From Macrostomum lignano (Eukaryota), in assembly GCA_002269645.1 (NCBI GenBank), contig NIVC01000014.1, positions 124,001 through 188,000 on the forward strand: a stretch of DNA of 64,000 bases, in the 5' to 3' direction. A program made the translations under genes and the position numbers. Shown here piece after piece: positions 3,016 to 64,000 of this stretch; position 1 is the first letter of the stretch; each line of letters starts with the position of its first letter. The notes under the pieces are model-generated. The model saw nothing but the letters and a program-made list of their open reading frames with translations. It did not search any database and was not told the origin of the DNA.

Positions 3016-3856
3016 GAAAGTAGTGTTACTTTTGCTTGGTGTGGACATATGGACAGTCACACTTGCATGTGCTTGCTGTCATTTGAAAGCGGCAAGTCTC
3101 TTCTTTAAAATGACACCAATTGCAAGAGATTTGAATCTGTGCTTCAAGAGATATGGACGATTAAGTAGAGAAAGGTCAGTCATAGACTTACAGAACCTTA
3201 AAAATGTCAACAGAAAACTTTTATCACGAGCGTAATTACTCCAGAAAAAACAAAAAACACAACAGTACAGTACAGAAGCAGGTGAAACAGATAACAAGCA
3301 AATTATCACACAAGCGAACAACATTAAAATCATTCATCGGTTGGCAGACTTGTCATCTTGCTGACAGCATGGTCGCCATGAGCTGTGCAAAGTTGCCTGT
3401 GGATGTCAGCCGATTTGGTTCCGGAGCTCCAAAGTGTAAAGATGGCATGTCGCTGCCCAGTCTTTGAATGCACATCCATTTGCAGTTCACAATTGAAAAT
3501 TGAATGTCAATAAACTTTGCAGGCGCAGCAGAAGCAGTTTTACAAGTCTCGTAGTTTTATGAGACAGCCCCTCTCGTCCACTGCATCACATTTGGCCATA
3601 GACAGCCCATGATTACGAAAAAATCAATAAAATCGTAAAAGTTTTCTGTTGACATTTTTGAGGTTCTGTAAGTCTATGACTGACCTTTCTCTACTTAATC
3701 GTCCATATCTCTTGAAGCACAGATTCAAATCTCTTGCAATTGGTGTCATTCTAAAGAAGAGACTTGCCGCTTTCAAATGACACCAAGCACATGCAAGTGT
3801 GACCGTCCACACGTCCACACCAAGCAAAAGTAACACTACTTTCCGGACGCCCCTCG
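3016..3856 (-). mobile_element. Internally deleted mariner element with ~208-bp inverted arms
   Basis: Arms 3016-3223 and 3636-3843 are inverted copies. The right terminus reads TA-CGAGGGGCGTCCGGAAAGT on the minus strand (mariner-type TIR). Minus strand ~3475-3330 translates MDVHSKTGQRHAIFTLWSSGTKSADIHRQLCTAHGDHAVS, resembling a mariner N-terminal HTH. The left outer TIR is missing. Confidence 0.7.
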
Positions 3857-6710: not shown

Positions 6711-7318
6711 GTCTTTTTGCATTGCACTTCATTTAAGTATTTTGTCTGTTTTCTTTGTGAATGCTTTATTTGGCTATCTTTTTGTTACTTGTAGAGAGCA
6801 GATATTCTATACAGATGTCCCCCAACGGGGGGCGAAGATTGCTAGTCCTATATACTAAAAATGAAATGTCTGTGTGTATGTGTGAGATAGATTCCAGAAA
6901 AAACGGCTCAACCGATTTTCTTCAAACTTGCACCATTCGATCAGAAATTTTCCTAGAATGGTACATGCATCCTGGCTAAGAAATTTCTTAATGTAAAAGG
7001 GATTAAATATTCGAAAAACATGCTTTTTGCAAAGGTCAAGCAGCTCTTTCGACCTAAAATTCATTGTAAGAATGCTAGAGAAAAAACTGACTGGCTGAAT
7101 TCCGATTGTGATAAAGATTGCATCACAACAAGTTGAAAACAGTGCCGAAGAAATGCACACACGACATGATTTAAATTGCGTAACCAATATTGCTAACTCA
7201 AATTGAGACTGATACTGGCTGACTGAGAAATTGATTATGTCATAACTTTTTACTCTAACCGACTTGCTATAAGTATTGAATTATAAGGGCCACAATTCAT
7301 GTGCTCCAATTGAAAAAA

Positions 7319-46647: not shown

Positions 46648-46920
46648 TCACTCGTAGCGAAATTGCAAACCCGAGCCGGCCAATTTCTCCTCAATAATTC
46701 CGTCAACCAGCTCGGCATCCTCAGCGGAGAAATGCCGTTTCCAGTCGCCGATTTCACCGCGACGAATAAAATTTGAGCCGGGACGCCAGCGCTCGGGATC
46801 GGTCAGCGTGATGTTCACCATCGGGTTGGACTGCATTGCGGAGAAGCTGGTCTGCTGTAGCACCGAGTGCAGCAGGGCTTCGGTCAGCGGGGTGGATAGG
46901 AATTCGGCCATCCGCTTCAC
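46648..46920 (-). CDS. Cytosolic sulfotransferase, exon 3 (terminal)
   Basis: AACGCAG acceptor. Encodes TSFSAM and FIRRGEIGDWKRHF (RKGxxGDWK motif), then TGA. Confidence 0.92.
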   Translation of the reverse strand: MKRMAEFLSTPLTEALLHSVLQQTSFSAMQSNPMVNITLTDPERWRPGSNFIRRGEIGDWKRHFSAEDAELVDGIIEEKLAGSGLQFRYE

Positions 46921-46944
46921 CTGCGTTTCGTTGTAGTAGACGAT

Positions 46945-47730
46945 TTTTAGAGGCGATTTTTAGTGGCGATTTTTAGAGGCGATTTTTAGAGGCGATTTTT
47001 AGAGGCGATTTTTAGTGGCGATTTTTAGTGGTGATTCTTAGGGGTGATTTTTAGAGGCGATTTTTAGAGGCGATTCTCAGAGGCGATTTTTAGTGGTGAT
47101 TCTTAGGGGTGATTTTTAGAGGCGATTTTTAGAGGCGATTTTTAGAGGCGATTTTTAGAGGCGATTTTTAGTGGTAATTCTTAGGAGTGATTTTTAGAGG
47201 CGATTCTCAGAGGCGATTTTTAGTGGTGATTCTTAGGGGTGATTTTTAGAGGCGATTTTTAGTGGTGATTCTTAGGGGTGATTTTTAGAGGCGATTCTCA
47301 GAGGCGATTTTTAGTGGTGATTCTTAGGGGTGATTTTTAGAGGCGATTTTTAGAGGCGATTTTTAGAGGCGATTTTTAGAGGCGATTTTTAGTGGTAATT
47401 CTTAGGAGTGATTTTTAGAGGCGATTCTCAGAGGCGATTTTTAGAGGTGATTCCTAGGGGTGATTTTTAGAGGCGATTCTTAGGGGCGATTTTTAGAGGC
47501 CATTCTTAGGAGTGATTTTTAGAGGCGATTCTCAGAGGCGATTTTTAGAGGCGATTCTCAGAGGCGATTTTTAGAGGCAATTCTTAGGGGCGATTTTTAG
47601 AGGCGATTCTTAGGGGCGATTTTTAGAAGTGTTTCTTAGGGCCATCTTTAAGGTTAACTAATTTTAAGGGCAATTTGTAAGACAATTTTTAAGGTACGTT
47701 TTAGGGGCGATTCTTAGGGGCAATTTTTAG
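46945..47730. repeat. 13-bp minisatellite (GCGATTTTTAGAG) filling sulfotransferase intron 2
   Basis: Tandem units. Confidence 0.93.
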
Positions 47731-47819
47731 GGAAAATTCTCATCAGCATCAACAATTCTTCTAAAAAGACTCTTAAAAAACTTTGCAGGACCATAACTAT
47801 AGTTAGTCAGATATTTCAC

Positions 47820-48107
47820 CTCAGCAGTCTTGTCCACAATCAGATCTTCGTAGAACAAAATAAGCACCCTGGAATGCCTTCGCATCGACCACCAGGACAG
47901 ATTGAAGTCGAAAAAATCATGCACAACAATTTCGGTATTCTCGGCACCGCCGGGGATTCCTAGCATCATCCGCCAGAACTGGGAGAACTCCTGCGGCACA
48001 CCCGACAGCTCGTCGCGCCTGGCAGATGTCATGTGATGATAGGTTGACACAATGGCGTCTTTTGGATTGCGCATCACTATGATGTTGCGCGGACCAGATG
48101 GCGCCAC
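47820..48107 (-). CDS. Cytosolic sulfotransferase, exon 2
   Basis: ATGTAG acceptor and GTGAAA donor, phase 0/0. Encodes IVMRNPKDAIVSTY (3'-PB motif) and LFYEDL. Confidence 0.92.
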
Positions 48108-48627
48108 CTACATCAATCAGAGCGGCATCGGTCACCGATGTACTTTTATTGTACTTTAAACATTATTGTACTTTTACATTGATGTACTTTTACCGATTGA
48201 TGTACTTTTAAATTGACGTACTTTTACAGATTGATGTACTTTTATGTCCTGGTGCACTTTTACATGTTGTACTTTTAAGGACCACTGTCGTAAAACTGTA
48301 AGTGTAATTTTTAGAAGGCAAATTTCCTGGGAAAAATACACTGCGGGGATAGGAGAAAAAACATTTTCAACTCTGTTATTCCTTTTTGTTGCATACAGAT
48401 ACTCTTAGCCTTAAAAAGCTAGACCTTGGCTTAAAAACTGATTGTAGCTTTTTAAAGACAAGTTTTAGTATATGGATTTAACTATTTAGAAAGATATAGG
48501 ATAGCTACTAGTATGCATTTAAATTGGACTATGCCTACAATAATGGCTTGACACTACCATTTACTTTACCATTTAAACGAACTGCCCCGCCCTTCGATCC
48601 CGAATGAAGCCGCGGCATTATTCTCAC

Positions 48628-48960
48628 CAGATGCCGCATATGAAAGGCAGGCGGCAGATGCGTCTTCAACACCCGAGGCCTGTCCAGCTTCTTAGCCCCA
48701 TCAATCGGCCTTGGAACCGGCAGTTCCGGCGGCAAATTCAAATCTATAAATGGCGATCTCAATTTAAGGTCCGTAGTTCGAGTCCGCTCCGGTCCCAACA
48801 CCAGACAGGACACGATCTCTTGCACCAGGGTGGTTCCGCATTTGGGAAAAGTGTTCACCAAAATGTCGTCATCGTAGAATTGGAAATTTTCAGCAAGTTC
48901 AGCCAGCACTTCAGCCGACGAGTGTAGAGGCACCGGCCAGTCCCGCCAATATAGAGACAT
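48628..48960 (-). CDS. Cytosolic sulfotransferase (SULT1-like), exon 1
   Basis: DDILVNTFPKCGTT (5'-PSB loop) and LKTHLP (catalytic His); GTGAGA donor. The spliced CDS is about 297 aa. An acceptor 18 nt upstream could mean an additional 5' exon. Confidence 0.9.
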
Positions 48961-50090: not shown

Positions 50091-50237
50091 CTCTCTCTTT
50101 CTCTGTCCTCTCCTTCTCTACTGCCACTCCCTCTTTTGATCTTTCCCTAGAAAACAGTCGTTTAGAAAGTCTGCAGTTTCAAATTTGTGTACCGTAGTAG
50201 AAGGCATGAGGGGGCTTCTGGGACAAAATTTTTCACC

Positions 50238-50480
50238 TCCTCCATAATCCCATTAAATCCATCTATATTATCCCTGACAGAATCAGAAAAAAGGGGGGTC
50301 GCACTCGCTCACAAAACGTCCTCCATAATCCCATTAAATCCATCCATATTATCCCTGACAGAATCATGAAAAAGGGGAGGGGCCGCACTTGCTCTGAAAA
50401 CTTCGAACATAATCCTATTAAATCCATCCATATTATCCCTGACAGAATCAGAGCATTATCCCTGACAGAATCAGAGCATA
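50238..50480. repeat. ~80-bp tandem repeat, about 3 copies (putative subterminal repeat)
   Basis: CATAATCCCATTAAATCCATC.ATATTATCCCTGACAGAATCA recurs three times. Confidence 0.8.
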
Positions 50481-50692
50481 ACAGGTGTCCACTAAAATTT
50501 GCTTAGTCATGCTAGCTAAGTAAGAGTTTCACTTTGCATGCATGCTTGAATCATTAATGCAAATTTCACTTCAAGCAAAGAAAAGAAACAAAGACTCATT
50601 ATATTTTATTTAAGATTTAAGATTATATTTTATTTTCGTAAAGGTGTTTTATGTTTACTAATAAACGACGACTGCAGAATCTTAAATCGAAA

Positions 50693-50986
50693 CTAATTTG
50701 TTCGATGACTTTCAATCGCTCTCTCCAATGCCACATTTGGTGGCAGTTCATTGACCGGCTTGGATGTTATCGCACGACACTCTGGACATGTTATACTATT
50801 TTCTGCCGCATTGTACAAAGTTTGGACACATCTCAGGCAGACCGAATGCGGGCAGTCCAGCTTCCTAGAAGGCGAAAGCCAGTTGTAGCACACTGGGCAT
50901 TCGCATCCACGCGGGATGTTTTCCCTCTCGCGGCTCTCCAACTCCTTCTCTTTAATTTGAATCTTTTCCTTTAGGTCTTTAACCAC
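50693..50986 (-). CDS. RING-HC finger protein, exon 2
   Basis: CPVC..C.H..C..C..CPEC followed by LPPNVAL (TRIM-type RING); TTTGAAG acceptor. Confidence 0.82.
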   Translation of the reverse strand: MVKDLKEKIQIKEKELESRERENIPRGCECPVCYNWLSPSRKLDCPHSVCLRCVQTLYNAAENSITCPECRAITSKPVNELPPNVALERAIESHRTN

Positions 50987-51074
50987 CTTCAAATAGTAAG
51001 AAATGAAACAATGTCATGATTAATGATAAAAAATTACCCAGAAATACACAGAAAACACAAATTTCGAGTCTTAC

Positions 51075-51260
51075 CTGCATTGATTTAAAAAAATCCGTAT
51101 TTCTCTGAAGTGAACTTTCACTCCACCCATTATATATAATCTCTAGCGGATAGGTTGCGAGGTCGCTATCAGCGTGCAACGCGGTTGTCACATTTTGTGC
51201 AGTCCGTAGTTTTGACTTAAGATCTTGCAGTCGCCGTTTATCAGTAGCAGTTGAGGGCAT
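51075..51260 (-). CDS. RING-HC finger protein, exon 1
   Basis: ATG at 51260 and CAG|GTAAGA donor. An 88-nt intron joins in phase 0 to give 159 aa (coiled coil plus C-terminal RING). Confidence 0.7.
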
Positions 51261-51528
51261 ATGTGGGGAGAAGCAGCTCGAGTGTTTCTTGGTTTGCTTA
51301 AATACAGCTAGCCGTAGAAAATTCTAGAAAATTCCAGACTGTACAATCTTGGAGTCAAGCAGGGAAAAACAATCGATATAGCTCAGTGTACGAGAGAACA
51401 TGAGGTGTGTGAATGTGAGGGGTGAGACTTCTCTATAGACAAAGCATAGGGTGAGGAGGTGAGGAGCATGAAGGAGAAGCATGGTGGAAAGAGAGATTGT
51501 AGCCGAAACCAGTGTGCTCAAGACTGTA

Positions 51529-51656
51529 CACTTGTGTGGAGAAAAGCGAAGCGAAGGCCAAAAGGCCAGTTTGCGATAAAATTTGGCCTTACTCGAGGCC
51601 AAAATCCTTTGCGTTCTGGCCTTTTGGCCCTCGCTTCTTTTCGCTCCACACAAGTG
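51529..51656. other. 128-nt imperfect palindrome with an inner hairpin
   Basis: 13-bp perfect outer arms CACTTGTGTGGAG, 22-bp arms GAAGCGA(A/G)GGCCAAAAGGCCAG, and an inner TTTGGCCT/AGGCCAAA stem. Confidence 0.85.
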
Positions 51657-51665
51657 GAGAGAGAA

Positions 51666-52115
51666 TCATTCTGCTCTTTCAACCCCCAGCTCTTTCAACA
51701 GTCTTCCTAGTTCTTGACTTGGCGCGTGCAATGCAAAACCCACCCCGCCCTCGCCTTCAACCCCCAACCCCAACTTTGCCTTACTAAAAATAACAGCTTT
51801 AACTAGCTTCCGAGCGATCGACTCACGAAATCCGCTTGAAGCCCCTATATTGTCTAGTCTCTTAAGCATTTCTTTGTCCCAACGATTCTTCTCCTCAGGA
51901 AAATCCCTATACTTAACGTCGTGCCACATGCAGACAGAGTCTAGCTCGTTCACAGGCTCATGCCCAGGATTTGGATTATTGTTTTTATCTAACTGTATTT
52001 CAAGTGGATTCAAAGGCCCGCAATATTTGTACCCGGGAATGGTCCAGCCTTTGTTTGGATGAGGAAGCTTTTCTATCAGTCCATGTGAATCTATTTTACC
52101 ACCAGAGCGTTGCAT
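51666..52115 (-). CDS. Parvovirus VP1u-type phospholipase A2
   Basis: TIPGYKYCGPLN (Ca-binding loop YxGxG-like) and PVNELDSVCMWHDVKY (catalytic HD). Confidence 0.9.
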   Translation of the reverse strand: MQRSGGKIDSHGLIEKLPHPNKGWTIPGYKYCGPLNPLEIQLDKNNNPNPGHEPVNELDSVCMWHDVKYRDFPEEKNRWDKEMLKRLDNIGASSGFRESIARKLVKAVIFSKAKLGLGVEGEGGVGFALHAPSQELGRLLKELGVERAE

Positions 52116-52145
52116 TATTTTATTTTAAATTTTCTTTTTAAAAAA

Positions 52146-53182
52146 ATGACAGATCAGAAACTTAAAAAACTCTACTACAGCGACAAAGGATTCTTTGTAG
52201 GAAAAAATGCAGTCACCAAACTCGCAGAACTAAGTAAGGAACCAAAAGCTAAAGTAGAAAAGTGGCTCTCTAAGCAAGCAGTCTACCAAGTCTATTTCCC
52301 ACCAGTAAAATTTGAAAGGCCCCATTTCAGTATTTATAAACCTAATGAGGCGCACCAAGCAGATCTTCTGTTTCTCCCCAATGACTCGGGCTACAAGTAT
52401 GCTCTCACAATTACAGATGTTGCCTCCAGATATAAGGAAGCTCGCCCACTCAAGACGAAGAAGTCAGAGGTTGTTGCCAGCGCACTGCAAGATATTTATA
52501 AAAACTCACCCTTAGTTACCCTGAAATGTTCATGACCGACCCGGGTAAGGAATTCATGGGTGCAGTGAAATCCCTTATGGAAAAGCACAATACAGAGATT
52601 CGCTATGGCAGAACAAACTTGCACAGAGACCAAGCGTACGTTGAGAGATTCAATCTAACTCTAGCCAAGAGGCTATTCACTAAGCAGACAGCTGAGGAGC
52701 TGAAACTAAAAAGTGGTCAGTACTATTCAAAATGGACAGACCGGCTCCCCACTGTTATAGAGCAACTGAACAATGAAGTCACACGTATGACTGGATTGAA
52801 ACCGTCCCATGCAATTAAACAAGACACTGTCGAACTTAAGTCATCTCATAAAACAGACAACAACACGACAACCCCACACAACACACACAACACAAAACAC
52901 ACCTCGAACTACCCTAAGCTTCCAGGAGTTGAATCACCATACATACTGACAAACTCTGAGTTTCTACGCTTTTTATATCTACCTGGAGAGCTAGAGAAAG
53001 ACACCAAAAGAAGAGCTACAGATCCATACTTCAGCCTTGATGTACATAAAATAGACAGACATTTTACCTCCGACTCCGGTGACTATTACTTTTTATCTCA
53101 GGCCTTTAACCCTAAATCCCCCACACGGTCATTCACTAGAGCTGAACTCCTAGTGATACCAGCTGACACAGAAATTAATTAA
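52146..53182 (+). CDS. Retroviral-like (rve) integrase, one 1-nt frameshift near 52520
   Basis: DDE triad HQADL / TDPGKEF / YVERFN. Restoring GTTACC to GTTTACC joins the two ORFs. Confidence 0.92.
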
Positions 53183-53198
53183 AATATTAAAATAAAAA

Positions 53199-53657
53199 AT
53201 GACAAAGATTGAAACCAGAACCATCAATAAACTCAATAAAATCATTGAATCAAAGAAACCAGGTCTTATATCAATTAAAGGTATCAAAGTAAAAATCGAT
53301 CCCACGCAGCAAATAGTTCAGTGTAATGAACAAAGACACAGTATCACAGATGAAAAGTCAGGAGGAATCCTACCATTAGCAGCTCTTATTCCGATCATTG
53401 CAGGCGCTGTAAGTGCCGCAGGTGGTGTAGCTGGAGGTGTAGCAACTGCTGTTAAAGCTGGGAATGATAGAGCCCACCAGCTAGAATTGCAAAAGATTGC
53501 AAGAGATAAAGGTATAACAATTAAGGCAGGAGATGGTTGCCCTGAGGGCTGCCCCGATCGTGATGATTTTGAGCATGAAAATTCTGTAAGCAAGTCTGAC
53601 ATTGTCAAAGCCATCATGACACTGCACAATGCTGGGTTTACAATAATGCGCATGTGA
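53199..53657 (+). CDS. Adenovirus pX-like small virion protein, 152 aa
   Basis: GGILPLAALIPIIAGAVSAAGGVA resembles adenovirus pX GGILPLLIPLIAAAIGAVPGIA. Confidence 0.7.
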   Translation: MTKIETRTINKLNKIIESKKPGLISIKGIKVKIDPTQQIVQCNEQRHSITDEKSGGILPLAALIPIIAGAVSAAGGVAGGVATAVKAGNDRAHQLELQKIARDKGITIKAGDGCPEGCPDRDDFEHENSVSKSDIVKAIMTLHNAGFTIMRM

Positions 53658-53779
53658 TGAGGTTTAAAACCCCACTTTATCCAGCTTCATAAACCTAATA
53701 CTACTGATAGGATGTAGAAACAGTTCAACTTTTCTATCAGGGTGGTCACCCTCAAATTTTTTTTATTTTAGAGAAAAAA

Positions 53780-56700
53780 ATGCCAAAAGCCAATCCAGCA
53801 AGAGATTTAGTCAACAAATATTTTTCAAAAGGCGTCTCATTTCAAGACAAAAGTAATTTACTAAGAGAAGCATGTAAACAAACGTTTAACACAGACCCTG
53901 GTCACCTGGGAAGCTATGAAAAACAGTTGGAAATCATCAATCAATTAGAATCCAACCAGTATGCGCCTATAAAAAATTCTGCAAAGGAACACCAAGAGAG
54001 GAGTCGCAACTTAGTTAACAAATACGAAACTCTCACTGGTGAAAAAGCAAAGTACCCACAAAATAAGCAGGAACAAGAAATTAGAGCAATTAATCCATTT
54101 AAAAGAGTCGGAGCTTGCCATTGAAGAGATTAATTTTGCACAGAGGAAGTTTACAGAACATTACATAGAGTACACAATCCCAATTAAGGATACCACCGCA
54201 AACATCTACGACTATAAAGACAGCATCCAATCAGTTGTTGATCACACACTCAAAACACGCAAGACCTTTAAACTACAGATATCATTCAAGATTGCGTTTT
54301 ATATGCCTGCGAAACCCACTGAGCATCTCGAGTATTACATGACAACAAAGGCAAAGCCATTCACCCCAACAGACACACTGGATCCTTTCCTTCAAGATGT
54401 CACTAAGAAAATTGAAGCGTTTACATCCAGAGGTTCGGATGGGTCGTGAGAGGGATTCAAAGAGCGACTGTCATGGTCATGAAATATGACCCACTTAAAG
54501 CCTCCTCTTATATAGAGCTCCCACACAAGCTAGCCGGCAAAAAAGCTTGCATAAATGTTAAAAATAAAGACAATTGCTGTGCCCTATGGGCAGTTCTTTC
54601 TGCACTTATTAGTGTACCTCACCACCCCGAAAGAACCTCAAATTATCAAAATTATTTCAACTACTATCTATCGAATGCGAAAAGAAGGGAATCAGGTTTG
54701 ACAAAGGAGGCTTGGCGATCTCTCAGATCCAAAGCTAGAAGAAGTGTTTAATAACAAAATTAGAATCACAGTCTTTGATGGAGTGAAAAAACTGAGAAAG
54801 TTCAACCGGTCAGATGTAGCAAAGACGTTTTAGATCCTGAGGGGAAAAGGCGGATTGAAGTGGATCTTCTAGTGATTGGTAATTTACTAGAGGAGGCTCA
54901 CTATGTTTGGATTAAAGATCTTTCAAGACTCATTCACAAGCAATTGAATAATCATCACGAGGCTGTTGCCATCTGCCGCTTGTGCCTTAAGCATTACAGT
55001 GGACCTGAACGCTTTGAAAAACTAGCAGAGCATGAATTATCATGTGAGGATCACCCAACAAACTGCTCTCTTCCTTCAGCTGAAGAGAAGTATCTCCGGT
55101 TTAAGAACTATCATAAGATGGAGAAGCTCCCATTTGTTGTATATGCTGATTTCGAATGCTCAATCGTGCCGGAAACTCAAAAACAAACTCAAACTCAAAA
55201 ACAAACTCAAACTCAAACTCAAAAACATGTCCCCAATTCAGTAGCATATGCCTTTATTAATACAAAAGGACTTGTTGAGTATAATTATTTCTTTGGAGAG
55301 CAGTGTGTGGAGCAGTTTATTGCCAGAATGTTAGAGTTGCAAAAAGTATTAGCACCCTTCAACCTGTTCCAATAATGATGACTGAGGAGGATGAAAGCAA
55401 TTTCCTATCAGCAACTCATTGCCACATCTGCAGGAAACATTTAACTTGCACTGATATTAAAAACCCCACCGTTAGGGACCACTGCCACTTTACTGGGAAA
55501 TTTAGAGGTGCAGCGCATAACACCTGTAATCTAAAGCTAAAATCGAACATTCATGATCTAACGATATTTTGTCACAACGCAAAGAACTATGACATGCATT
55601 TAATAGTTGAAAAAATCGGCATGATTCCAGACATACACCTTGACTGCATCGCAGAGAACAAGGAGAAGTTTAAGTGTGTTGATATTAAACAGGATAATTC
55701 GGGTAAGGTACAGGTAAAATAAGACTGAAGGATTCATATCAATTTCTAGCTGCCAGTCTAGACGAACTAAGCAAGAATCTAAAAGATGAACAATGTACAT
55801 ATACAAAGATGTTTGCAAGTAAAATTAACAACACTGATGAATCATTTAAACTTTTAAGAAAGAAAGGCTTCTACCCCTATGAAAATATTACTGGGTATCA
55901 CGTATTTGAAGAGGTTTACCACCACAGGAGAAGTTCTTTTCAAAGCTAACAGACTCTGAATCTCTGACAAAGACTATGAGCACGCGAAGCATGTCTATAA
56001 TTACTTTAATTGTCAAAACTTCTTCCAGTATCACCTGCTTTACCTTTCACAGATGTGTTTCTGCTGGCTGATGTTTTGAAACCTTCAGATACACCTGGTA
56101 CACAGCATATGGCCTCGATCCTGCACATTATGTGTCTCTGCCTGCCACTAGCTGGGAATCTTTGCTTAAAATGAAATGGGATCAAGATCCAGATTGGTAC
56201 ATTGAACTTCTTACAGACATTGACATGTACAATTTTGTCGAATCGTCAAAGCGAGGGGGGATCTCAATTTGCACCCATAGATATGCAAAAGCAAACAATC
56301 CCTACATTGAATCTTACAATAAGGAGCAGCCCTCAAACTACATTACTTACTTGGACGCTAATAATCTCTACGGGTGGGCGATGAGTCAAGATCTTCCAGT
56401 TAGAGATTTTCGATGGCTACCCTCATCAGAATTCAAACAGGACTTTTCATTGGCTGCCATTTATGAGGTTGATGTTTACATTCCACCAGAGCTTCACGAC
56501 TATTTCTCTGACTTTCCACCCTTCCCAGAGAACATTAAGTGCCCGAAAATAATCGAAACTCCCAATGATAATAATGGAACTTGGCACCTGTCAGGAACAG
56601 AAAAAGAACATACAGAGAAACTAACACAGAATCTAAACAACAAGACACGTTACAAAATCCATTACAAACTGCTTCAGTATTTTATCTCACTGGTTGCAGG

Positions 56701-57647
56701 GTCACCAAAGTTCACAGGGCTCTTACATTTACAGAGGAAGCGTGGATGAAACCCTACATTGATAAGAACACCCAGTTTAGGACCAAAGCAACCAACGACT
56801 TTGACAAGAACCTCTTTAAGTTGGCCAACAACTCTGTCTATGGCAAGACTCTTGAGAATGAGCGGAAAAGAACAAACCTGAAACTTGTTACCTCATCAGA
56901 GCCTGCTGTTATTCAGGCAAATTGTCAAAGCCAACATTCAAAGAACTCCATATCTTTAATAGCTACTTAGGTGTGATCATATTTTACAAAACCAAGGTGA
57001 CGCTGCGCAAGCCGATCTATACAGGTGTCACTGTTCTCGACGAATCAAAACGTCTGATGTACCAGTTCTTCTATGGCATGAAGCAGCAGTACAAGGATAA
57101 AATGAAACTCTTGTACACTGACACAGACAGTTTTATTATGGATATTCAAACAGAAGACATTTATCAGGACATGCTGCAGCAAAAAGATTTGTTTGACTTG
57201 TCTGAGTATGATGAATCTTGCAGGACACAGAATGGTGATCAAGTGTTTGACGCTACTAACAAGAAAGTGATTGGGAAAATGAAGGACGAGATTGCTGGTG
57301 ACATAATCACTGAATTCATTGGGTTGAGAGCAAAGTCCTATTTTATAAAATGTGAGTCGTCAGACCCAATCAAAAAATCAAAGGGAATTCCGAAACGTGT
57401 AGTTAGGAAGGAAATTAATGAAGCTGAATACAGAGACGCCTTGAATTGCAACAAAAAGACATCACATGAGTTCTCAAAGCTACAATCTAAAAACCATATT
57501 ATTCACACAATTCAGCAAAAGAAGATTGGACTGTCAGGTGCAGATAACAAGAGATTCATTTTTGATGACAATATCAACAGTCTACCGTTCGGGCATTGGA
57601 GGGTTAGGTTTAGGAGGTGGAAGTTAGATTCGGGCACTGGAGATTAG
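53780..57647 (+). CDS. Protein-primed family B DNA polymerase with endonuclease VII-like Zn-finger insertion; about 13 single-base frameshifts in this sequence
   Basis: ExoI VYADFEC, ExoII HNAKNYD, RDHCHFTGKFRGAAHNTCN (EndoVII-like), motif A YLDANNLYGWAM, motif B KLANNSVYGK, motif C YTDTDS. Confidence 0.93.
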
Positions 57648-57702
57648 GAGATTAGGAGATTGGGTTTAGGTTTAAGAGAAAGTTTAATAAACCTCATAAA
57701 AA

Positions 57703-58105
57703 ATGACGACAAATAACTTTCTTGAAGATTTGGCTAACGAACTGGAAATCCCAAACTTTAGAGGAATATTTATGAGGGACACTCTGCCCCGATTTTCCTC
57801 TAAGAAAGGAATGCGGCATCATGAACTTTGACACCACCGATAAGCCAGGATCTCATTGGGTTTGCTGGGTGATTGATCCCGATCGCAAGCACAAGTGTTA
57901 TTACTTCGATAGCTATGGGACGGCAGTACCAGAAGAGCTAAGAAATTATATGAAGGGGAAAAACAATAAAAAAATTTATCGCTCAGACTTTATTCTCCAA
58001 GGTCTTAGCAGTGATATTTGCGGTGAGCTGTGCATGACTGTTTTGTATGCAATGACCAAAACACGAAAGACCTACAAGGAAATTATTCTTGGCTGTGTTT
58101 CATAA
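57703..58105 (+). CDS. Adenain-like cysteine protease, one 1-nt frameshift near 57797
   Basis: FRGIFMRDTLP..ECGIMNFD..GSHWV (His)..YFDSYG (Asp)..Q..DICGELC (Cys). Confidence 0.9.
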
Positions 58106-58109
58106 GGGT

Positions 58110-58765
58110 TCATTGTGCATTTCTCGTTGTCCTTCTCGTTGTCCTTCTTTCCACATAATGTTGAAGAACTTTCTCGAGTTCATTTCTCAGCTGACTCATG
58201 TCATCAGTACCGACCATGTTCAAGTTCATTCGAATTGATTGTTCATAAAGATCCTGAATGGTTTTGAACTCATCCTCTGAAATGAACTTATCCTCGATTG
58301 CCCTTGAAATGTACCCTATGATTGAAGTGTGCACTCCTTTCTCTTTTACTTGCTTCTCCTGTAGCTGCTTTAGTTTTTTTCGCCTGTTTCGCGCTACTGC
58401 TCCAGTAATTGCTGAAATAAGTCCACATGCAGCACCTACTGAACCAAGTGGAATTGCGATTGGGACTGTGATGGCTGGCAACACTGAGACAGCTGCAGCA
58501 GACCCAGTTAGAACAGACACAGATCCTAGAATCATATTGCTGTAGTCGAAAAATTTACAGTGGTTGTCATAGCGCTTAATTTTCTTTGTGTTGTGGAAAA
58601 TATTTTTTTCAAGATCATCACGCATTTTTTAATCTCCACCAGTCGAAACTGCTGAGAGTTACAAGTAATGACGGGGTAGAGTTTTTGTTGCTCATATTGG
58701 GGTGCACTAGGTGCTGTGGGTGCTGTGGGAGCATTCGGATCATAAAGAGAATTTTGAGCATCCAT
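58110..58765 (-). CDS. Conserved Polinton hypothetical membrane-associated protein, one 1-nt frameshift near 58625
   Basis: LYP..QQFRLVEI..LEK, two hydrophobic Gly/Ala helices, a basic cluster and ISRAIEDKFISEDEF. This pattern is recalled from Polinton accessory genes (called GasderminX-like in adintovirus annotations). Confidence 0.65.
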
Positions 58766-58878
58766 TTTTAGAGAATTTTTAAAAAAAATTGACAACTCGT
58801 TGGTGGTGGTTAGATTTGTTTTACGTTTGATTGTTTCGTCTGCAGTTGGCGCCAGCAGGTCTCTTCGAATCTACCTAT

Positions 58879-59673
58879 TTATTTGTCTATGCGCTCCATT
58901 CTACACTTGATCTCAAACAAACCGGTTGGCTCACGAAATTTTGGGTTAGTGGTCAAACTGGTTGGCTCACGAAATTTGTGGTCAGTGGTCAAGTCGGTTG
59001 GATCACTTATTTCCCTTGTGGTCTGTGGTGCCTCTTCAACAGTATCAATATCAGGAAGATTGTGTACTCCCTCAAGACGACTGATTCTTCTCAACGATTT
59101 CTGCCATTCGGTAAAAATTAAATCTAAATAGACTTTAATTGCATCAAGTCTTTCTTTAATTCTATCATGCAACGATGTTGACTGAGTCATGAACTCTTCT
59201 AAATTATTGACTTTAACTGTGTTGGTTGCGACGTTTTCTTTAATTCTATCATGCAACGCTGTTGACTGGTTCATAAACTCTTCTAAATTATTTACTTTAG
59301 CTGTGTTTGTGAAAACTCCTCCTTCGAGAATACGCATCCGTCTATCAGTGGAATTTCCCAGAAGATTAACTGATGATCTCAAGCCGTTGATTAGCGAGAC
59401 TATCGAAGTTATTTCTGACCTAAGTTCATTAGTTGCGTTTAACAACGGCACATAAAGCTTATCACTGTCAAACTTCTGTCTAGCTACTTTAAGCCTGAGA
59501 TCTTCTATGTTTATTTGCAACTGGTGCATGGAGCGCTCTAGGGCTTTCAGTCTGTTTTTATTCAGTTTGATCTCTGGGATCTCTTCATCAGTGTTAATGT
59601 AGCGCTTGTCAAGGAAGGAAGTTGTGAGAGTGCTGTTGCCTGTAGTTGACTCACCTGCAAAATTTATAGACAT
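58879..59673 (-). CDS. Hypothetical coiled-coil protein, 264 aa
   Basis: Open frame with AAAAAATG start, heptad-rich sequence and an internal duplication TNTxKVNNLEEFMxQSTxLHDRIKE. Confidence 0.7.
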   Translation of the reverse strand: MSINFAGESTTGNSTLTTSFLDKRYINTDEEIPEIKLNKNRLKALERSMHQLQINIEDLRLKVARQKFDSDKLYVPLLNATNELRSEITSIVSLINGLRSSVNLLGNSTDRRMRILEGGVFTNTAKVNNLEEFMNQSTALHDRIKENVATNTVKVNNLEEFMTQSTSLHDRIKERLDAIKVYLDLIFTEWQKSLRRISRLEGVHNLPDIDTVEEAPQTTREISDPTDLTTDHKFREPTSLTTNPKFREPTGLFEIKCRMERIDK

Positions 59674-59689
59674 TTTTTTAAATGAAAAA

Positions 59690-60490
59690 TTAAAGTAAAA
59701 TTCTTTTCTCCTTATTAATCATGACAAACTGATAGGGTTGGTTCCACTTTTCATAGCATATGTTAACGAATTCCTCCTGTGATATTGTTCTGTTAGAGTT
59801 CTTAGCTGGATATGTAATGTGAGCTGGGGCAATGACCTCATTATAAAATCGTTTCAGTCGATCTTGTGGTATGGTTGGGAAAAGGAGAATCAAATTACAG
59901 TTACCTCGAATTGTTTTATTTGGCAGTTCAAACCAGTTTTGGGCAATGTAAATAACATTGCAATTATTATGTCTACCCCGGGTGAAATAATTTTCTATCT
60001 GTTTCTGGGGACCTGTCATGCAGTCATCAAAGACAATCAGGTGCTTTCTCCCCTTTTCTAGCTCATCAGGTTGAGGTAAGAGTTTAGTTTTAGGATCTAT
60101 CTGTGGATCTCCATAAGTGAAAACTTTAATGTTTTGCCATTTTTCATTGTCTGGGATGTGCTTTGCGTATTCAGTGGCTACAACTTCCGGGTTGCTGTTG
60201 AGGTCTTTTTGATGTCTAAAACATTGAATAATATCTTCCTTGTTGAGTTTGTTCTGTAGGCCCGCTACTAGCATTTTATACTCATCTTGATACAGAGTGG
60301 GTGAATAGATATGTAGTGTGTCATAATCGAGGAATCCAGGTCTGAGGAGCATGTTAAAAACTCTGAAGGTTTTCCCTGACCCAGATGAGCCAACAACAAT
60401 GCATCGGAAGTGCCCTGGAATTATCTCGTTGTGAGCAAATTTTATCTGATTGTGTGTCCAGTGGGTATGAAAGTCGTTTGTGAAGTCCAT
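59690..60490 (-). CDS. A32/FtsK-like genome packaging ATPase
   Basis: Walker A GSSGSGKT, Walker B LIVFDD and FTRGRHNNCNVIYIAQ. Confidence 0.93.
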   Translation of the reverse strand: MDFTNDFHTHWTHNQIKFAHNEIIPGHFRCIVVGSSGSGKTFRVFNMLLRPGFLDYDTLHIYSPTLYQDEYKMLVAGLQNKLNKEDIIQCFRHQKDLNSNPEVVATEYAKHIPDNEKWQNIKVFTYGDPQIDPKTKLLPQPDELEKGRKHLIVFDDCMTGPQKQIENYFTRGRHNNCNVIYIAQNWFELPNKTIRGNCNLILLFPTIPQDRLKRFYNEVIAPAHITYPAKNSNRTISQEEFVNICYEKWNQPYQFVMINKEKRILL

Positions 60491-60539
60491 TTTTTATGTA
60501 AAAAAAACTTTTTCTTTTTAAACTTGTGTATTTAAGACG

Positions 60540-60680
60540 CGTGTGTCTTTTTTCGGGATGTGTATGTGTGTGTCTCTTTGCGGGATGTGTGTGTCTTTTT
60601 TCGGGTTGTGTGTGTGTGTCTTTTTCGGGTTGTGTGTGTCTTTTTTTTCGACTAGTCCTACATCCGACTAGTCCTACACC
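60540..60680. repeat. Intergenic iterated motif GTGTCT(T)nCGGG x5 and GACTAGTCCTACA x2
   Basis: Directly visible; lies upstream of the ATPase start. Confidence 0.75.
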
Positions 60681-60713
60681 CTCACACCTCTTTTACCGTC
60701 AGGGTGCACCAAA

Positions 60714-61094
60714 TTAGTCAAATTTAAAACCGCCTCCTTTCTTATATTCAGCTCTCATCTTTGCGTAGATGGCTGGATCGACACTATCTGCACTCGGTGC
60801 AAGGGGTTGAATATCTGGTATTGATTTCCGGGTTTCATTAACCGTATCCTTTATCTTTTTGGCTGCTGTGGCTACACTGCCAGCCGCTTCGGCAACGTTC
60901 TTGATGTTCTCTTTGTTCTCTCCAATGACCTTAAAAATCTTGGCCCCCTGAGCGATCAAATCGGCAAGGCCATTCCCAGAGCGTTCTTTTCTTGGATAGT
61001 GGCCTGCAGGGAAAAGTCCAGATCCGCGTTTAATGAGATTAAGTTCCTCTTTGTCATAGTATTTGTCAATGTCTTTTTCGAAAATAATTGGCAT
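60714..61094 (-). CDS. Small basic protein with amphipathic helix (pVI-like candidate), 126 aa
   Basis: Likely start AAAAAGATG at 61094. GNG is followed by LADLIAQGAKIFKVIG; three GxG motifs. Confidence 0.6.
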   Translation of the reverse strand: MPIIFEKDIDKYYDKEELNLIKRGSGLFPAGHYPRKERSGNGLADLIAQGAKIFKVIGENKENIKNVAEAAGSVATAAKKIKDTVNETRKSIPDIQPLAPSADSVDPAIYAKMRAEYKKGGGFKFD

Positions 61095-61110
61095 CTTTTT
61101 AAATAGAAAT

Positions 61111-62337
61111 TTATTTTTTGTTGAACCGCGAAAGCAGAAGCTCTCTCGCCCTCTTATCGATGTATTTTCTCTCAAGCATTTTATTGAGGATGTGAACGAA
61201 CTCTTTTCTATTCTCATCTTTCATTCCGGTCTTTGCCGCTCCTAGAAGAACCGCTACTCGCTTGTAGATTTCAGAAATTCCTTTTCCAGTTGAGGGCGGT
61301 TGGTCTTGAGGTTGTGGAGTTGGTTGGGCTTGTAGCTGCTGGGGAGGTGATGCAAAAGACTGCTCACTTTCAGAGATGGAACTGTCATGTGGTGCCTGTC
61401 TTTGTTGAGGTGTGAAAACTCTTTGCTTGATTCTGTTCATTCGATCTGGAGAGTGTTGTTCTAAGTGTTGCCAATCTGTTGGGTTTTGTTTCTTATATTC
61501 AGCTACTTGAGTCGGATCTGCATTTTCCAGTTGCCTGAGTACTTCTGTGAAATGTTGCTGCTGCTGTGGTTGTGGTTGTTGTTGCTGTTGTTGTTGTTGT
61601 TCTAGATATTTTATGACTTCCGCCTGATCTGGCAAATCGAACCATTGTTTAAAGTGCTTGTACTTTTTGAATCTAGTCAGGTTGACACCGTTATCATACA
61701 TAAGTCTCAGGACTTCTGGGGCCTTTAGTATTTCTATATCTCTAGCAAGAGCAAAAGTCACTAGATCTCTATAGTTCTTTAGCTGTTTGTCCGAGATTCT
61801 CTCTTGGTTCTTGGTCATAAAAGTCAGTAAGGTTTCTGTGAAAGGAATGCTCTTAGTTTCCGAGCCTTTGACAACAGAAATATGTTTCTTATTTATGTCG
61901 ATATAATATTCCACTGGTTCATTATAAATGTTTTTTCTCCACATACTTATTCCAAATACATATTTCCCATCATGTTCGACACGCTCTACTGGTCCAAAAA
62001 TGTTATCTGTCACTTTTAGTTGTGATTGATGTGGTTGTGATTGTTGTTGTGATTGTTGTGGTTGCGGTTGTGTCTGTGGTTGCGGTTGTATCTGTGGTGC
62101 TTCTGGAATTTTACCCAAAACCTTTTGCACTTGGGTTTCCTGTATGTCGTCGATAGTTTCTTTGACCTGATCAATATTTTTCTTAGCTTCTCCATACCCG
62201 GGCTTATGAAACTCTGTGGCTGCTTGGACAAACTCATTGTAGGATTGTTGCTCCTTATTTATTAGCCCGGTAACTCGTTTCTCAGCTTGTGCTAGCTTCT
62301 CCAATTCAGATATCTGCTGTGTACTTTTTCGCTTCAT
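61111..62337 (-). CDS. Hypothetical Gln/Pro-rich protein, 408 aa
   Basis: Intact ORF. C-terminal GKG..RVAVLLGAAKTG..E..IL resembles a motif recalled from Polinton core proteins. Confidence 0.7.
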   Translation of the reverse strand: MKRKSTQQISELEKLAQAEKRVTGLINKEQQSYNEFVQAATEFHKPGYGEAKKNIDQVKETIDDIQETQVQKVLGKIPEAPQIQPQPQTQPQPQQSQQQSQPHQSQLKVTDNIFGPVERVEHDGKYVFGISMWRKNIYNEPVEYYIDINKKHISVVKGSETKSIPFTETLLTFMTKNQERISDKQLKNYRDLVTFALARDIEILKAPEVLRLMYDNGVNLTRFKKYKHFKQWFDLPDQAEVIKYLEQQQQQQQQPQPQQQQHFTEVLRQLENADPTQVAEYKKQNPTDWQHLEQHSPDRMNRIKQRVFTPQQRQAPHDSSISESEQSFASPPQQLQAQPTPQPQDQPPSTGKGISEIYKRVAVLLGAAKTGMKDENRKEFVHILNKMLERKYIDKRARELLLSRFNKK

Positions 62338-62367
62338 TTCTTATTTTATTTTATTTTTAGTTAAAAA

Positions 62368-63654
62368 ATGAACGACCCACTGACACCAGTTTTCTACAAG
62401 ATTAACAAGCCTATTTTGAGTGATGATAGCACAATCAAAGCGACTCAGGTAAGAGTTCCCAGTCAGGAAAATCAGAATGAAACTAATCTTGGTCCTGGTC
62501 AAACACTGACATTTACATACAATGGATGTTCGTCTCTGGTTAGTGTGCACAGTCTTAAGAGCGGCTTCCATATGACATTTCAATTCAAGACAAAAGGTGG
62601 TGCGGATGCGGCTCGTGCTAACGTTGACAAGCATGATGCGGATGTGGCTCTGATCAGTAACTTTTGGGCGTACATGTTCAAGGAGTTTAGTGTATCGAAT
62701 GGGAGCACAGAGTTGGAGCGAATCGCCAACTTTGGAATTGTCTATGACGCTCATTGTTTGATCGAGAATCCTGATTTTATTCAATTGGGAAGTGGTGCGG
62801 GTTTTATTGCAGACGAAAAAGAAGGAGATATCAATGACAGTGGTTATAAAAATAGGAAGAAGAGATACAACTATGCATTGCAAGGTGCTGATGATGCTGC
62901 TAAGAACCCGCTGTATCGGTCTGTTGATGTATTTGTACCATTGAGATTCATGAGTGGATTCTGTAATACATTTAATCGACTGACTAGTAACTTTAGCTAC
63001 ACATTTAGACTGACTAGAGATGATCGCAGTAGAGTGTTGTGGACTGGGGCGGACCACACTGGGATGGCTGTGAAGCTAACCGGAATCGAGCTGTATTTGG
63101 AAGTCATTGAGCCAAAGACTGCACTAAAAGCGGATTATCTCAAGGCAATAGAGAAGGACATTGATGTTGCATACACGGCCTACATGTGTCGAGATGAGCG
63201 AAACGAAACTAGAACAAACATCTGCATTAAAGAGGGATCATGCAGCAATCCAAGGTATATCATTATTAATATGAGAAACCCAAATAGCATTATACGCTAC
63301 ATGCATGGAGACGTGCGGTCCATTCAGCATGAAATCAGTGATAATCTTTACCCTGCACTGCCACAAAATGGAGATTTCAGTCAGAACAAGATTAGCAAAT
63401 TTTACAGCGAGTTGGTCGACTTGGCTGTGAAAGAGAACAATGGAATTGCTATCACTGCTCTTCAATATGGAACTCTATATCCGATGTTTGGCGCTGATGT
63501 GTCTGCCAGACAAATGCCTACTGATAACAGCCCTGTGAATATCGTGACTAACATTGAGAGGACTGCCGCAACACCCGTGGACTTGTACATTATCTATGCA
63601 TTTGAGAGGAAGGTGAAGCTTAACATGATCAACAATTCATCCAGTAAAGTTTAA
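62368..63654 (+). CDS. Major capsid protein (double jelly-roll, Polinton type), 428 aa
   Basis: Size, beta-strand-rich pattern, FVPLRFMSGFC, NPRYIII, LYP..FGAD motifs and position directly before the minor capsid gene. Confidence 0.82.
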   Translation: MNDPLTPVFYKINKPILSDDSTIKATQVRVPSQENQNETNLGPGQTLTFTYNGCSSLVSVHSLKSGFHMTFQFKTKGGADAARANVDKHDADVALISNFWAYMFKEFSVSNGSTELERIANFGIVYDAHCLIENPDFIQLGSGAGFIADEKEGDINDSGYKNRKKRYNYALQGADDAAKNPLYRSVDVFVPLRFMSGFCNTFNRLTSNFSYTFRLTRDDRSRVLWTGADHTGMAVKLTGIELYLEVIEPKTALKADYLKAIEKDIDVAYTAYMCRDERNETRTNICIKEGSCSNPRYIIINMRNPNSIIRYMHGDVRSIQHEISDNLYPALPQNGDFSQNKISKFYSELVDLAVKENNGIAITALQYGTLYPMFGADVSARQMPTDNSPVNIVTNIERTAATPVDLYIIYAFERKVKLNMINNSSSKV

Positions 63655-63674
63655 ATATTTTTTTAGGACAAAAA

Positions 63675-64000
63675 ATGGAAGCTATAGCCGAAAGACTAAA
63701 CAACATTGTTTCACACTCTAAGGAGAGCATTCCTATTACAATAACCGGGCGAATTAATGACTCAAACGGGATATTTGTTGAAAAATTAGAGCAGGCGATT
63801 CGCCTGGATCCTGGCGCTAATTACCATGTCTATCTTAACGACTTCACTGGTTGGTCAAACGTTCCCAATGTGATGGCAGCAAATAATAAGTTTTATTACA
63901 AATGGAAAGGTGCAGCAGCAGACCCTGTGGTATTCCATGTGAGCACGCAAAGTGTGGATACCTACAATAACTTTCTAGAAAATGTCTTTACTAAGAGAGG
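63675..64000 (+). CDS. Minor capsid protein (penton-like), truncated by window end
   Basis: Open frame to the end: IRLDPGANYHVYLNDFTGWSNVPNV..NNKFYY, a Polinton penton-like N-terminus. Not in the ORF track. Confidence 0.78.
   Translation, partial: MEAIAERLNNIVSHSKESIPITITGRINDSNGIFVEKLEQAIRLDPGANYHVYLNDFTGWSNVPNVMAANNKFYYKWKGAAADPVVFHVSTQSVDTYNNFLENVFTKR

Follow-up and report, generated by a model that had tools for sequence, protein, structure and literature searches.

The stretch of DNA analysed here, referred to as the window (64,000 nucleotides from Macrostomum lignano; G000:C14:124001-188000), ends in a Polinton/Maverick, an adintovirus-type provirus, which is complete at 15,537 bp and extends from position 50196 of the window to position 3732 of the adjoining stretch L001, about 1.7 kb past the window end. 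Taken together, the evidence makes it quite probable that this element is a young insertion of a family of about 240 copies that is still replicating, recombining, and packaging into particles; for the formation of particles by the family as such, the balance is slightly in favor.

Ends and age of the insertion

The element bears the terminal inverted repeats (TIRs) by which a Polinton/Maverick is recognized and is bordered at both ends by a perfect 6-bp target site duplication (TSD):

50190..50195, plus strand: left TSD copy TACCGT (6 bp); right copy at L001:3733-3738; single copy at the empty sites
50196..50490, plus strand: left TIR, a short terminal segment followed by about 2.6 copies of an 84-bp unit; right TIR at L001:3389-3732

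The number of 84-bp units differs between the two ends as well as between copies. Two other contigs, C13 and C991, carry both flanks around a single TACCGT and lack the element, i.e. they represent empty homologous loci. Since the TSD is present at both ends and the empty sites have it once, the element was inserted by a true integrase-type reaction. In 965 unique flank bases, the C13 empty site shows 0 substitutions and 0 gaps relative to the window, and the flanks of the C991 site differ from the window by 18 substitutions. Because the unique flanks of the empty C13 locus are identical, the insertion is likely very recent; as judged from these alignments, the element entered this locus after the C13 copy of the region had split off. 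The initial annotation had assigned the block to the Polinton/adintovirus class before its right end was at hand. This assignment is borne out by the TIRs, the 6-bp TSD, and the presence of all core genes, and the contiguity with host DNA is established by the right TIR ending at L001:3732, the TACCGT on both sides, and the two empty sites.

Gene content and virion proteins

Thirteen tightly packed genes are found in 50693-64000, with spacers of 4-223 nt between the core genes, in agreement with the at least 12 genes and very short spacers described initially; the gene spans sum to 13,026 of 15,537 bp. The genes are:

50693..51260, minus strand: RING accessory gene in the left variable slot; exons 51260-51075 and 50986-50693; 159 aa; PF15227 and PF00097 above cut-off
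51666..52115, minus strand: parvovirus-type phospholipase A2 (PLA2); PF08398, E 7e-14; Ca-loop-like motif and HD dyad; open
52146..53182, plus strand: retroviral-type DDE integrase; rve, E 2e-5 on a split piece, below cut-off; D, D, E motifs; one frameshift
53199..53657, plus strand: pX-like protein; PF05829, E 5e-7; xGG motif ahead of a hydrophobic stretch; open
53780..57647, plus strand: protein-primed DNA polymerase (pPolB) with an Endonuclease VII/HNH-like insert; PF03175 and PF02945 below cut-off; 13 copy-specific frame-changing sites
57704..58105, plus strand: adenain-like cysteine protease; PF00770, E 0.002 on a split piece; His, Asp, and Gln/Cys motifs; one frameshift
58110..58765, minus strand: conserved two-transmembrane (2-TM) protein; its hydrophobic segment resembles two helices; one frameshift
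58879..59673, minus strand: 264-aa coiled-coil-like protein with internal repeats; varies among copies; no family
59690..60490, minus strand: A32-like packaging ATPase; PF04665, E 7.5e-7; Walker A and B; type A; open
60714..61082, minus strand: protein of about 123 aa; GxG motifs, then an amphipathic helix; candidate for a membrane-lytic component of the virion
61111..62337, minus strand: Q408, 408-aa Gln-rich protein; two types among copies
62368..63654, plus strand: major capsid protein (MCP), double jelly roll; type A; open
63675..64000, plus strand: penton, single jelly roll, 287 aa; crosses the window end; whole gene at L001:1675-2538
L001:2927-3169, minus strand: 80-aa open reading frame (ORF) between penton and right TIR; no family

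Matches above the curated Pfam cut-off were obtained for the parvovirus-type PLA2 (52 bits), Adeno_PX (30), and the Pox_A32 ATPase (29); those to rve, DNA_pol_B_2, Endonuclease_7, Peptidase_C5, and the DJR-like family lie below it, mostly on split pieces, with the expected motifs present.

For the MCP, a structural model of low confidence (pLDDT 54) was built from 10 sequences. It matches the capsid proteins of PBCV-1 and Sputnik in Foldseek (E 1e-10 and 2e-10, respectively), and its best match in VIA is the MCP of faustovirus (Z 14.3, rmsd 5.2, 322 aligned). The top 15 structural matches are all capsid-type double-jelly-roll proteins, and the closest outside relatives are nine unnamed proteins with 43-78% identity. 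At the level of this model, the ORF at 62368 is thus confirmed as a double-jelly-roll capsid protein, the point on which the initial annotation had staked its interpretation. The penton model, built from 76 sequences (pLDDT 93), matches the pentons of mavirus, PBCV-1, adenovirus, and Sputnik at Z 12-13 (mavirus: Z 13.3, rmsd 7.1, 239 aligned), by which the predicted single jelly roll of the ORF at 63675 is likewise confirmed as a penton.

Three membrane-penetration proteins had been proposed as well. Of these, only the PLA2 has a firm family match with catalytic motifs, and no group I intron interrupts it in 40/40 copies. The pX-like protein corresponds to an adenovirus core protein according to the Pfam description, and for the amphipathic protein, the indications are a computed hydrophobic moment of 0.57 and a weak Colicin match (E 0.034). 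No fusogen was found by Pfam among the window ORFs.

Among the remaining proteins, pPolB has 318 longer homologs, and five full-length homologs align across most of the region; relatives of its C-terminal piece are 39-49% identical, and among the 120 of 318 listed, those with a name belong to corals, a pearl oyster, an aphid, and a protist. A search of the similarity atlas retrieved just unnamed clusters for the 2-TM protein, for which recognition was below the reliable level, and no match for Q408, which presumably resembles a conserved core protein of Mavericks. No TBP was detected by Pfam among the element ORFs scanned and no group I intron by Rfam in the window, L001, or four sister loci. 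The motif GGNCC occurs 23 times in the element versus 27.4 expected. Most core genes (52115-63675) have a T-rich tract and then an A run directly 5' of the ATG, which the RING gene lacks. An inverted repeat with 66-bp arms to the left of PLA2 (51524-51661) shares sequence with a TTTTGGCC-type repeat to the right of the penton gene (L001:2780-2920), and these shared repeats might be a cis element located where each accessory slot has its inner edge.

Copy number, capsid types, and selection

The exact 21-nt terminus occurs 483 times in the genome (control 0), which corresponds to about 240 elements; this count takes in short derivatives and duplicated loci, so that independent insertions are fewer. 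All 98 of the 98 MCP matches scored (the best 98 of 665 candidates) have 97-100% identity, and 96 of them are without stops. For closer comparison, 40 other copies were sampled, namely every second of 95 suitably placed loci among 149 other integrase matches (the best 150 of 467 candidates having been scored). In nine sampled copies with both ends, the TSD is perfect in four, matches over five visible bases in one, and has one mismatch in another.

Several genes occur in two types, with identities of 99 or 80% for the ATPase, 91-96 or 68-79% for Q408, and 95-99 or 76-79% for MCP/penton. The two capsid types are 83% identical to each other in amino acid sequence, and both are kept open. Among close open copies, dN/dS is 0.095 for MCP, 0.195 for penton, 0.17 for ATPase, 0.16 for integrase, and 0.25-0.27 for pX and protease, and comparisons between the types of ATPase, penton, MCP, and Q408 give 0.03-0.16, the pairs not being independent and open frames alone having been used; 14 divergent protease pairs gave 0.72. 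From these ratios, the capsid genes are under purifying selection, and because they stay under selection, the family likely still makes particles.

Proposed life cycle

From the established biology of Polintons and adenoviruses, the protein-primed polymerase would copy a free linear form starting at its ends, and the DDE integrase would insert it. The ATPase would package the genome into a shell of MCP and penton, and the protease would mature virion proteins at Gly-rich motifs; such motifs are present in pX, PLA2, and the amphipathic protein and agree with the cleavage consensus of such proteases. PLA2 and the amphipathic protein would help entry. Copies that replicate together would exchange modules by recombination and would also supply short derivatives in trans, and the RING protein, as a predicted E3 ligase made from integrated copies, would most likely regulate host silencing or defense proteins.

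Alternatively, the family could move inside cells alone as a self-synthesizing transposon, its capsid genes being conserved remnants or forming shells that never leave the cell. No particles have been observed, and RNA-type contigs over the capsid genes are of low depth and indistinguishable from DNA carry-over. Maverick particles were also unobserved at the time of PMC8097293. Such a purely intracellular cycle is nevertheless doubtful in view of dN/dS values of about 0.1-0.2 in MCP, penton, and ATPase, close copies included, of the two open capsid types, and of the PLA2 frame, which is open in 19/20 copies spanned. A more far-reaching interpretation, in which hundreds of proviruses form a living endogenous-virus population that inserts, makes particles, and recombines, with two interchangeable capsid types, rotating terminal accessory genes, and the RING protein as a latency or anti-silencing factor, can be put forward tentatively.

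Several points weigh against a family that still replicates, recombines, and packages. The MCP model has low confidence, and particles and episomes of the family are predicted from its genes. Of the nine sampled copies that have both termini, three lack a matching TSD, so that chimeras may be present in the assembly, and selection, as measured from the interdependent pairs of open frames, may predate the burst. An open pPolB frame is present in 0/32 sampled copies, and in a genome-wide search, an open frame of at least 1,250 codons contains 3 of the 150 matches scored; the density of private frameshifts in pPolB is about 2-fold that in MCP (1.27 vs 0.60 per kb). For the RING gene, the pN/pS ratio of 1.3 does not exceed 1 significantly (P 0.32), and the public sequencing runs consist of contigs whose RNA status is guessed and whose depth cannot rank genes.

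Coding state of the window copy

As assembled, the window copy is broken, with 13 frameshifts in pPolB and one each in the integrase, protease, and 2-TM genes. These splits, like the spliced RING gene (50693-51260), were overlooked in the initial annotation. Its description of the element as potentially active is upheld as regards recent activity of the family; the window copy itself is not coding-complete in this assembly (pPolB, integrase, protease, and 2-TM gene split).

The breaks in the window copy are probably for the most part consensus errors of long reads or assembly. The closest sister of this copy, C739, is an independent insertion with its own TSD. Over 52146-59750 (7.6 kb), the two differ by 17 substitutions and about 20 gaps, mostly of 1 bp, and 13/18 one-base gaps lie in runs of at least two bases. 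Between contigs C1652 and C276, which represent one locus assembled twice, 15 gaps and 25 mismatches are found in 11 kb, and the unique flanks of the window insertion have no gaps relative to C13. Because gaps outnumber substitutions, are mostly single-base, and fall into base runs, and because the unique flanks are free of them, the breaks look like errors. Homopolymer runs amount to 18 per kb in pPolB and 10 in MCP; the excess of frameshifts follows them, yet it may also include real decay. A selective inactivation of pPolB with the capsid genes spared was considered and dropped, as the roughly 2-fold excess fits homopolymer density and gene length. The public runs give no decision on the window breaks, since contigs lose rare variants.

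If the breaks were real, the window copy and most of the family would be defective passengers that rely on a few complete elements for copying and insertion in trans. The scarcity of open pPolB frames given above would fit, and short derivatives of 0.6-3.6 kb with TSDs, perfect in 3/5, show that mobilization in trans does happen; in copy-rich vertebrate genomes, pPolB is also mostly defective (PMC8097293). This explanation is rather unlikely given the excess of single-base gaps over substitutions relative to C739, the absence of gaps from the unique flanks, the differences between the two assemblies of one locus, and the little time that an insertion with identical flanks had to acquire 13 frameshifts. 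In the other copies, the frames open per copies spanning the gene are 18/26 for MCP, 20/24 for penton, 19/29 for ATPase, 26/36 for integrase, 16/36 for protease, 22/38 for pX, and 19/20 for PLA2.

Among the short derivatives with exact termini (L108-L112; 0.64-3.8 kb), two on different contigs have the same TSD, ACCAGC, and may represent one duplicated site. In C1652, C276 (L095-L098), and C633 (L093-L094), the capsid arm is duplicated in inverted orientation, without integrase or polymerase. Elements with a doubled right arm were not retained as a new class: C1652 and C276 represent one insertion site with a TSD and a flipped center and count as a single event, and C633, in which the flanks are inverted as well, may be an artefact.

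A spliced RING gene in an exchangeable accessory slot

Between the left TIR and PLA2 lies an exchangeable accessory slot that differs among copies, and the version of the window is present in 1/40 sampled copies. The left slots of the 40 copies and the window (L003-L082) fall by sequence into at least eight clusters plus ten singletons, a rough grouping as many slots are partly covered. Several slots hold ORFs of 150-260 aa, and eight ORFs from left slots of other copies matched no Pfam family.

In the window, the slot contains a gene with two exons, an 88-nt GT-AG intron, and a C3HC4 RING. The splice joint was found in the runs X6, X16, X19, X20, and X8 (5/8 runs, five studies) and not in X1, X5, and X18, two of which are DNA-like, the run types being guesses; the RING gene is thus transcribed and spliced. 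Contigs with 0 differences to the window allele are present in X19 and X8, and among the matches scored, this allele occurs just in the window and C739. In most spliced runs, though not in X20, the contig depth of the RING exons is far above that of the core genes, which is a hint, as depth cannot rank genes.

The 159-aa product is identical letter for letter to P0244, listed at NCBI as a hypothetical protein of Macrostomum lignano, with the same species given in UniRef. The host, which had been thought to be a non-model invertebrate, is therefore a named species, a laboratory flatworm. From its genomic context, the gene annotated as a host gene of Macrostomum lignano belongs to the provirus: at 94% identity or more, the left slot of a Polinton copy is the location in 10/10 cases, an 11th copy adjoins a TIR, and homologs of lower identity are neighbors of Polinton protease or integrase sequence. 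The 31 matches, of which 19 loci in addition to the window were viewed in context, gave no host locus. Outside the host-labelled cluster, no relatives were found, the search giving one match among five candidates of 53-170 aa. Divergent homologs of 73-79% identity (L088-L092) lie beside protease-like sequence, seemingly in other Polinton families, and the intron is kept in the two that were examined.

All 10 close copies have the gene in an open state; a 91% copy contains indels. As measured by these alleles, the protein evolves far faster than the core genes. Positive selection was considered and rejected: one pair has 19.5 non-synonymous versus 2.5 synonymous changes, but six close alleles together have 42.5 versus 11.5 (P 0.32).

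The protein is predicted to be an E3 ubiquitin ligase. RING E3 ligases are also known from viruses, namely ICP0 of herpesviruses, IE2 and PE38 of baculoviruses, and p28 of poxviruses, and the gene described here resembles these in encoding a C3HC4 RING in a DNA virus near the genome end. By this analogy, it is most likely a regulator against host silencing or defense factors. The gene could instead serve the host as a domesticated or captured cargo without a role in the cycle of the element, for which its spliceosomal intron, an upstream context unlike the A-rich starts of the core genes, the host-style annotation, and the transcription in five studies could be cited. This is unlikely considering that all close copies lie in Polinton slots or at a TIR, that the distant homologs lie by Polinton genes, that no host locus is among the matches viewed in context, and that the protein evolves so much faster than the core.

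Mosaic copies

Throughout the compared copies, pPolB is 95-98% identical, whereas the two types of ATPase, Q408, and MCP occur in changing combinations. Among the 40 sampled copies, 27 could be typed at all three loci and show six combinations, of which BAA (12 copies), BBA (5), and ABA (5) are recurrent in the order ATPase/Q408/MCP; C1113, left out of this typing for a short Q408 alignment, has a seventh. All four combinations of ATPase and MCP type are present among TSD-matched copies. In the pair of the window and C739, the sequences are near-identical up to about 59750, divergent from inside the ATPase gene on, and near-identical again at the far right, so that about 9.5 kb and the far right end are held in common. 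Recombination between co-resident copies is the simplest reading of these alignments. An assembly artefact, in which reads of different copies were merged in a 15-kb high-copy repeat, would fit the many indel errors in the element interior, the lack of a matching TSD in 3/9 copies with both ends, and the inverted flanks of C633, but is improbable, as the swaps recur and are module-sized, TSD-matched copies show all four ATPase and MCP combinations, and the window and C739 share long stretches on both sides of the swap.

Relation to known elements

The element is similar to Polintons/Mavericks (PMC8097293) in its TIRs, its 6-bp TSD, and a size within 12.7-24.6 kb, as well as in having pPolB, integrase, ATPase, protease, major and minor capsid proteins, and accessory regions flanking the core. 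It differs in its termini, which are AGTAGA instead of (AGT)2, in its gene order, and in the intron of its accessory gene, the core ORFs of Polintons being described as intronless. The about 240 close copies, with 93-99% identity, compare with a median of 8 and a maximum of 287 in vertebrates, where the top hosts have all-defective copies (PMC8097293). Adintoviruses (PMC8502044) share the PolB, rve integrase, adenain, FtsK/A32, hexon, penton, PLA2, and pX-like domains and also have membrane-active accessory proteins, but PLA2 and pX are separate genes here and fused as PLA2X in adintoviruses. For the latter, recombination or transfer of virion modules has been proposed (PMC8502044); in the searchable part of the supplement, neither a gene labelled RING nor an entry for Macrostomum is present.

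In nematode Polintons, pPolB exchange, an HNH-type insert in some pPolBs, and recent insertions have been reported, and 748 pPolB1 entries come from 8/73 flatworm genomes (PMC10748475). General mosaicism has been described for polisuviruses (bioRxiv 10.64898/2026.10.13.758929). Module exchange between co-resident elements is common to these groups and the family described here. In contrast to these groups, pPolB is shared here (95-98%), the ATPase, Q408, capsid, and terminal slot vary within one young family, and a crossover was mapped inside a gene. Insertions of Orthopolintovirales have been reported from Rhabditophora, and the respective dataset may list the element of the window (bioRxiv 10.1101/2025.04.19.649669). 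In a coral, Polinton hallmark genes are expressed (PMC11131425). Neither the family nor a spliced RING gene belonging to a Polinton was found described in the literature, Repbase and most subscription journals being outside the search.

Host surroundings of the element

The element is inserted between two host genes, encoding a sulfotransferase on the left and Rtf2 on the right. The intron-containing sulfotransferase gene has three Sulfotransfer_1 exons (window 46648-48960, minus strand) and begins about 1.2 kb from the insertion; the exon searched first is present at both empty sites too. The Rtf2 gene consists of two exons (L001:4483-4956 and 6829-7164, minus strand), ends about 750 bp past the right TIR, and has a weak tRNA match in its intron (L001:6751-6820). 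The host DNA at window positions 1-50120 contains dense long minisatellites with units of 13-49 bp. GGNCC is under-represented there (51 vs 125 expected), possibly just as a repeat effect.

Implications

It has long been an open question whether the Polintons integrated in animal genomes form particles and go through a life cycle like that of viruses (PMC8097293, PMC11131425). Neither the class nor module swapping as such is new; the value of the present case lies in a tractable host, mosaicism at the population level, and an expressed proviral RING gene. With a very young, copy-rich family whose capsid genes appear to be selected in an animal kept in the laboratory, the question of particles becomes testable by observation alone. 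The mosaic copies would represent module exchange inside one genome, and the finding that a spliced and transcribed "host" gene in the annotation of the species belongs, by its context, to a provirus matters for expression studies.

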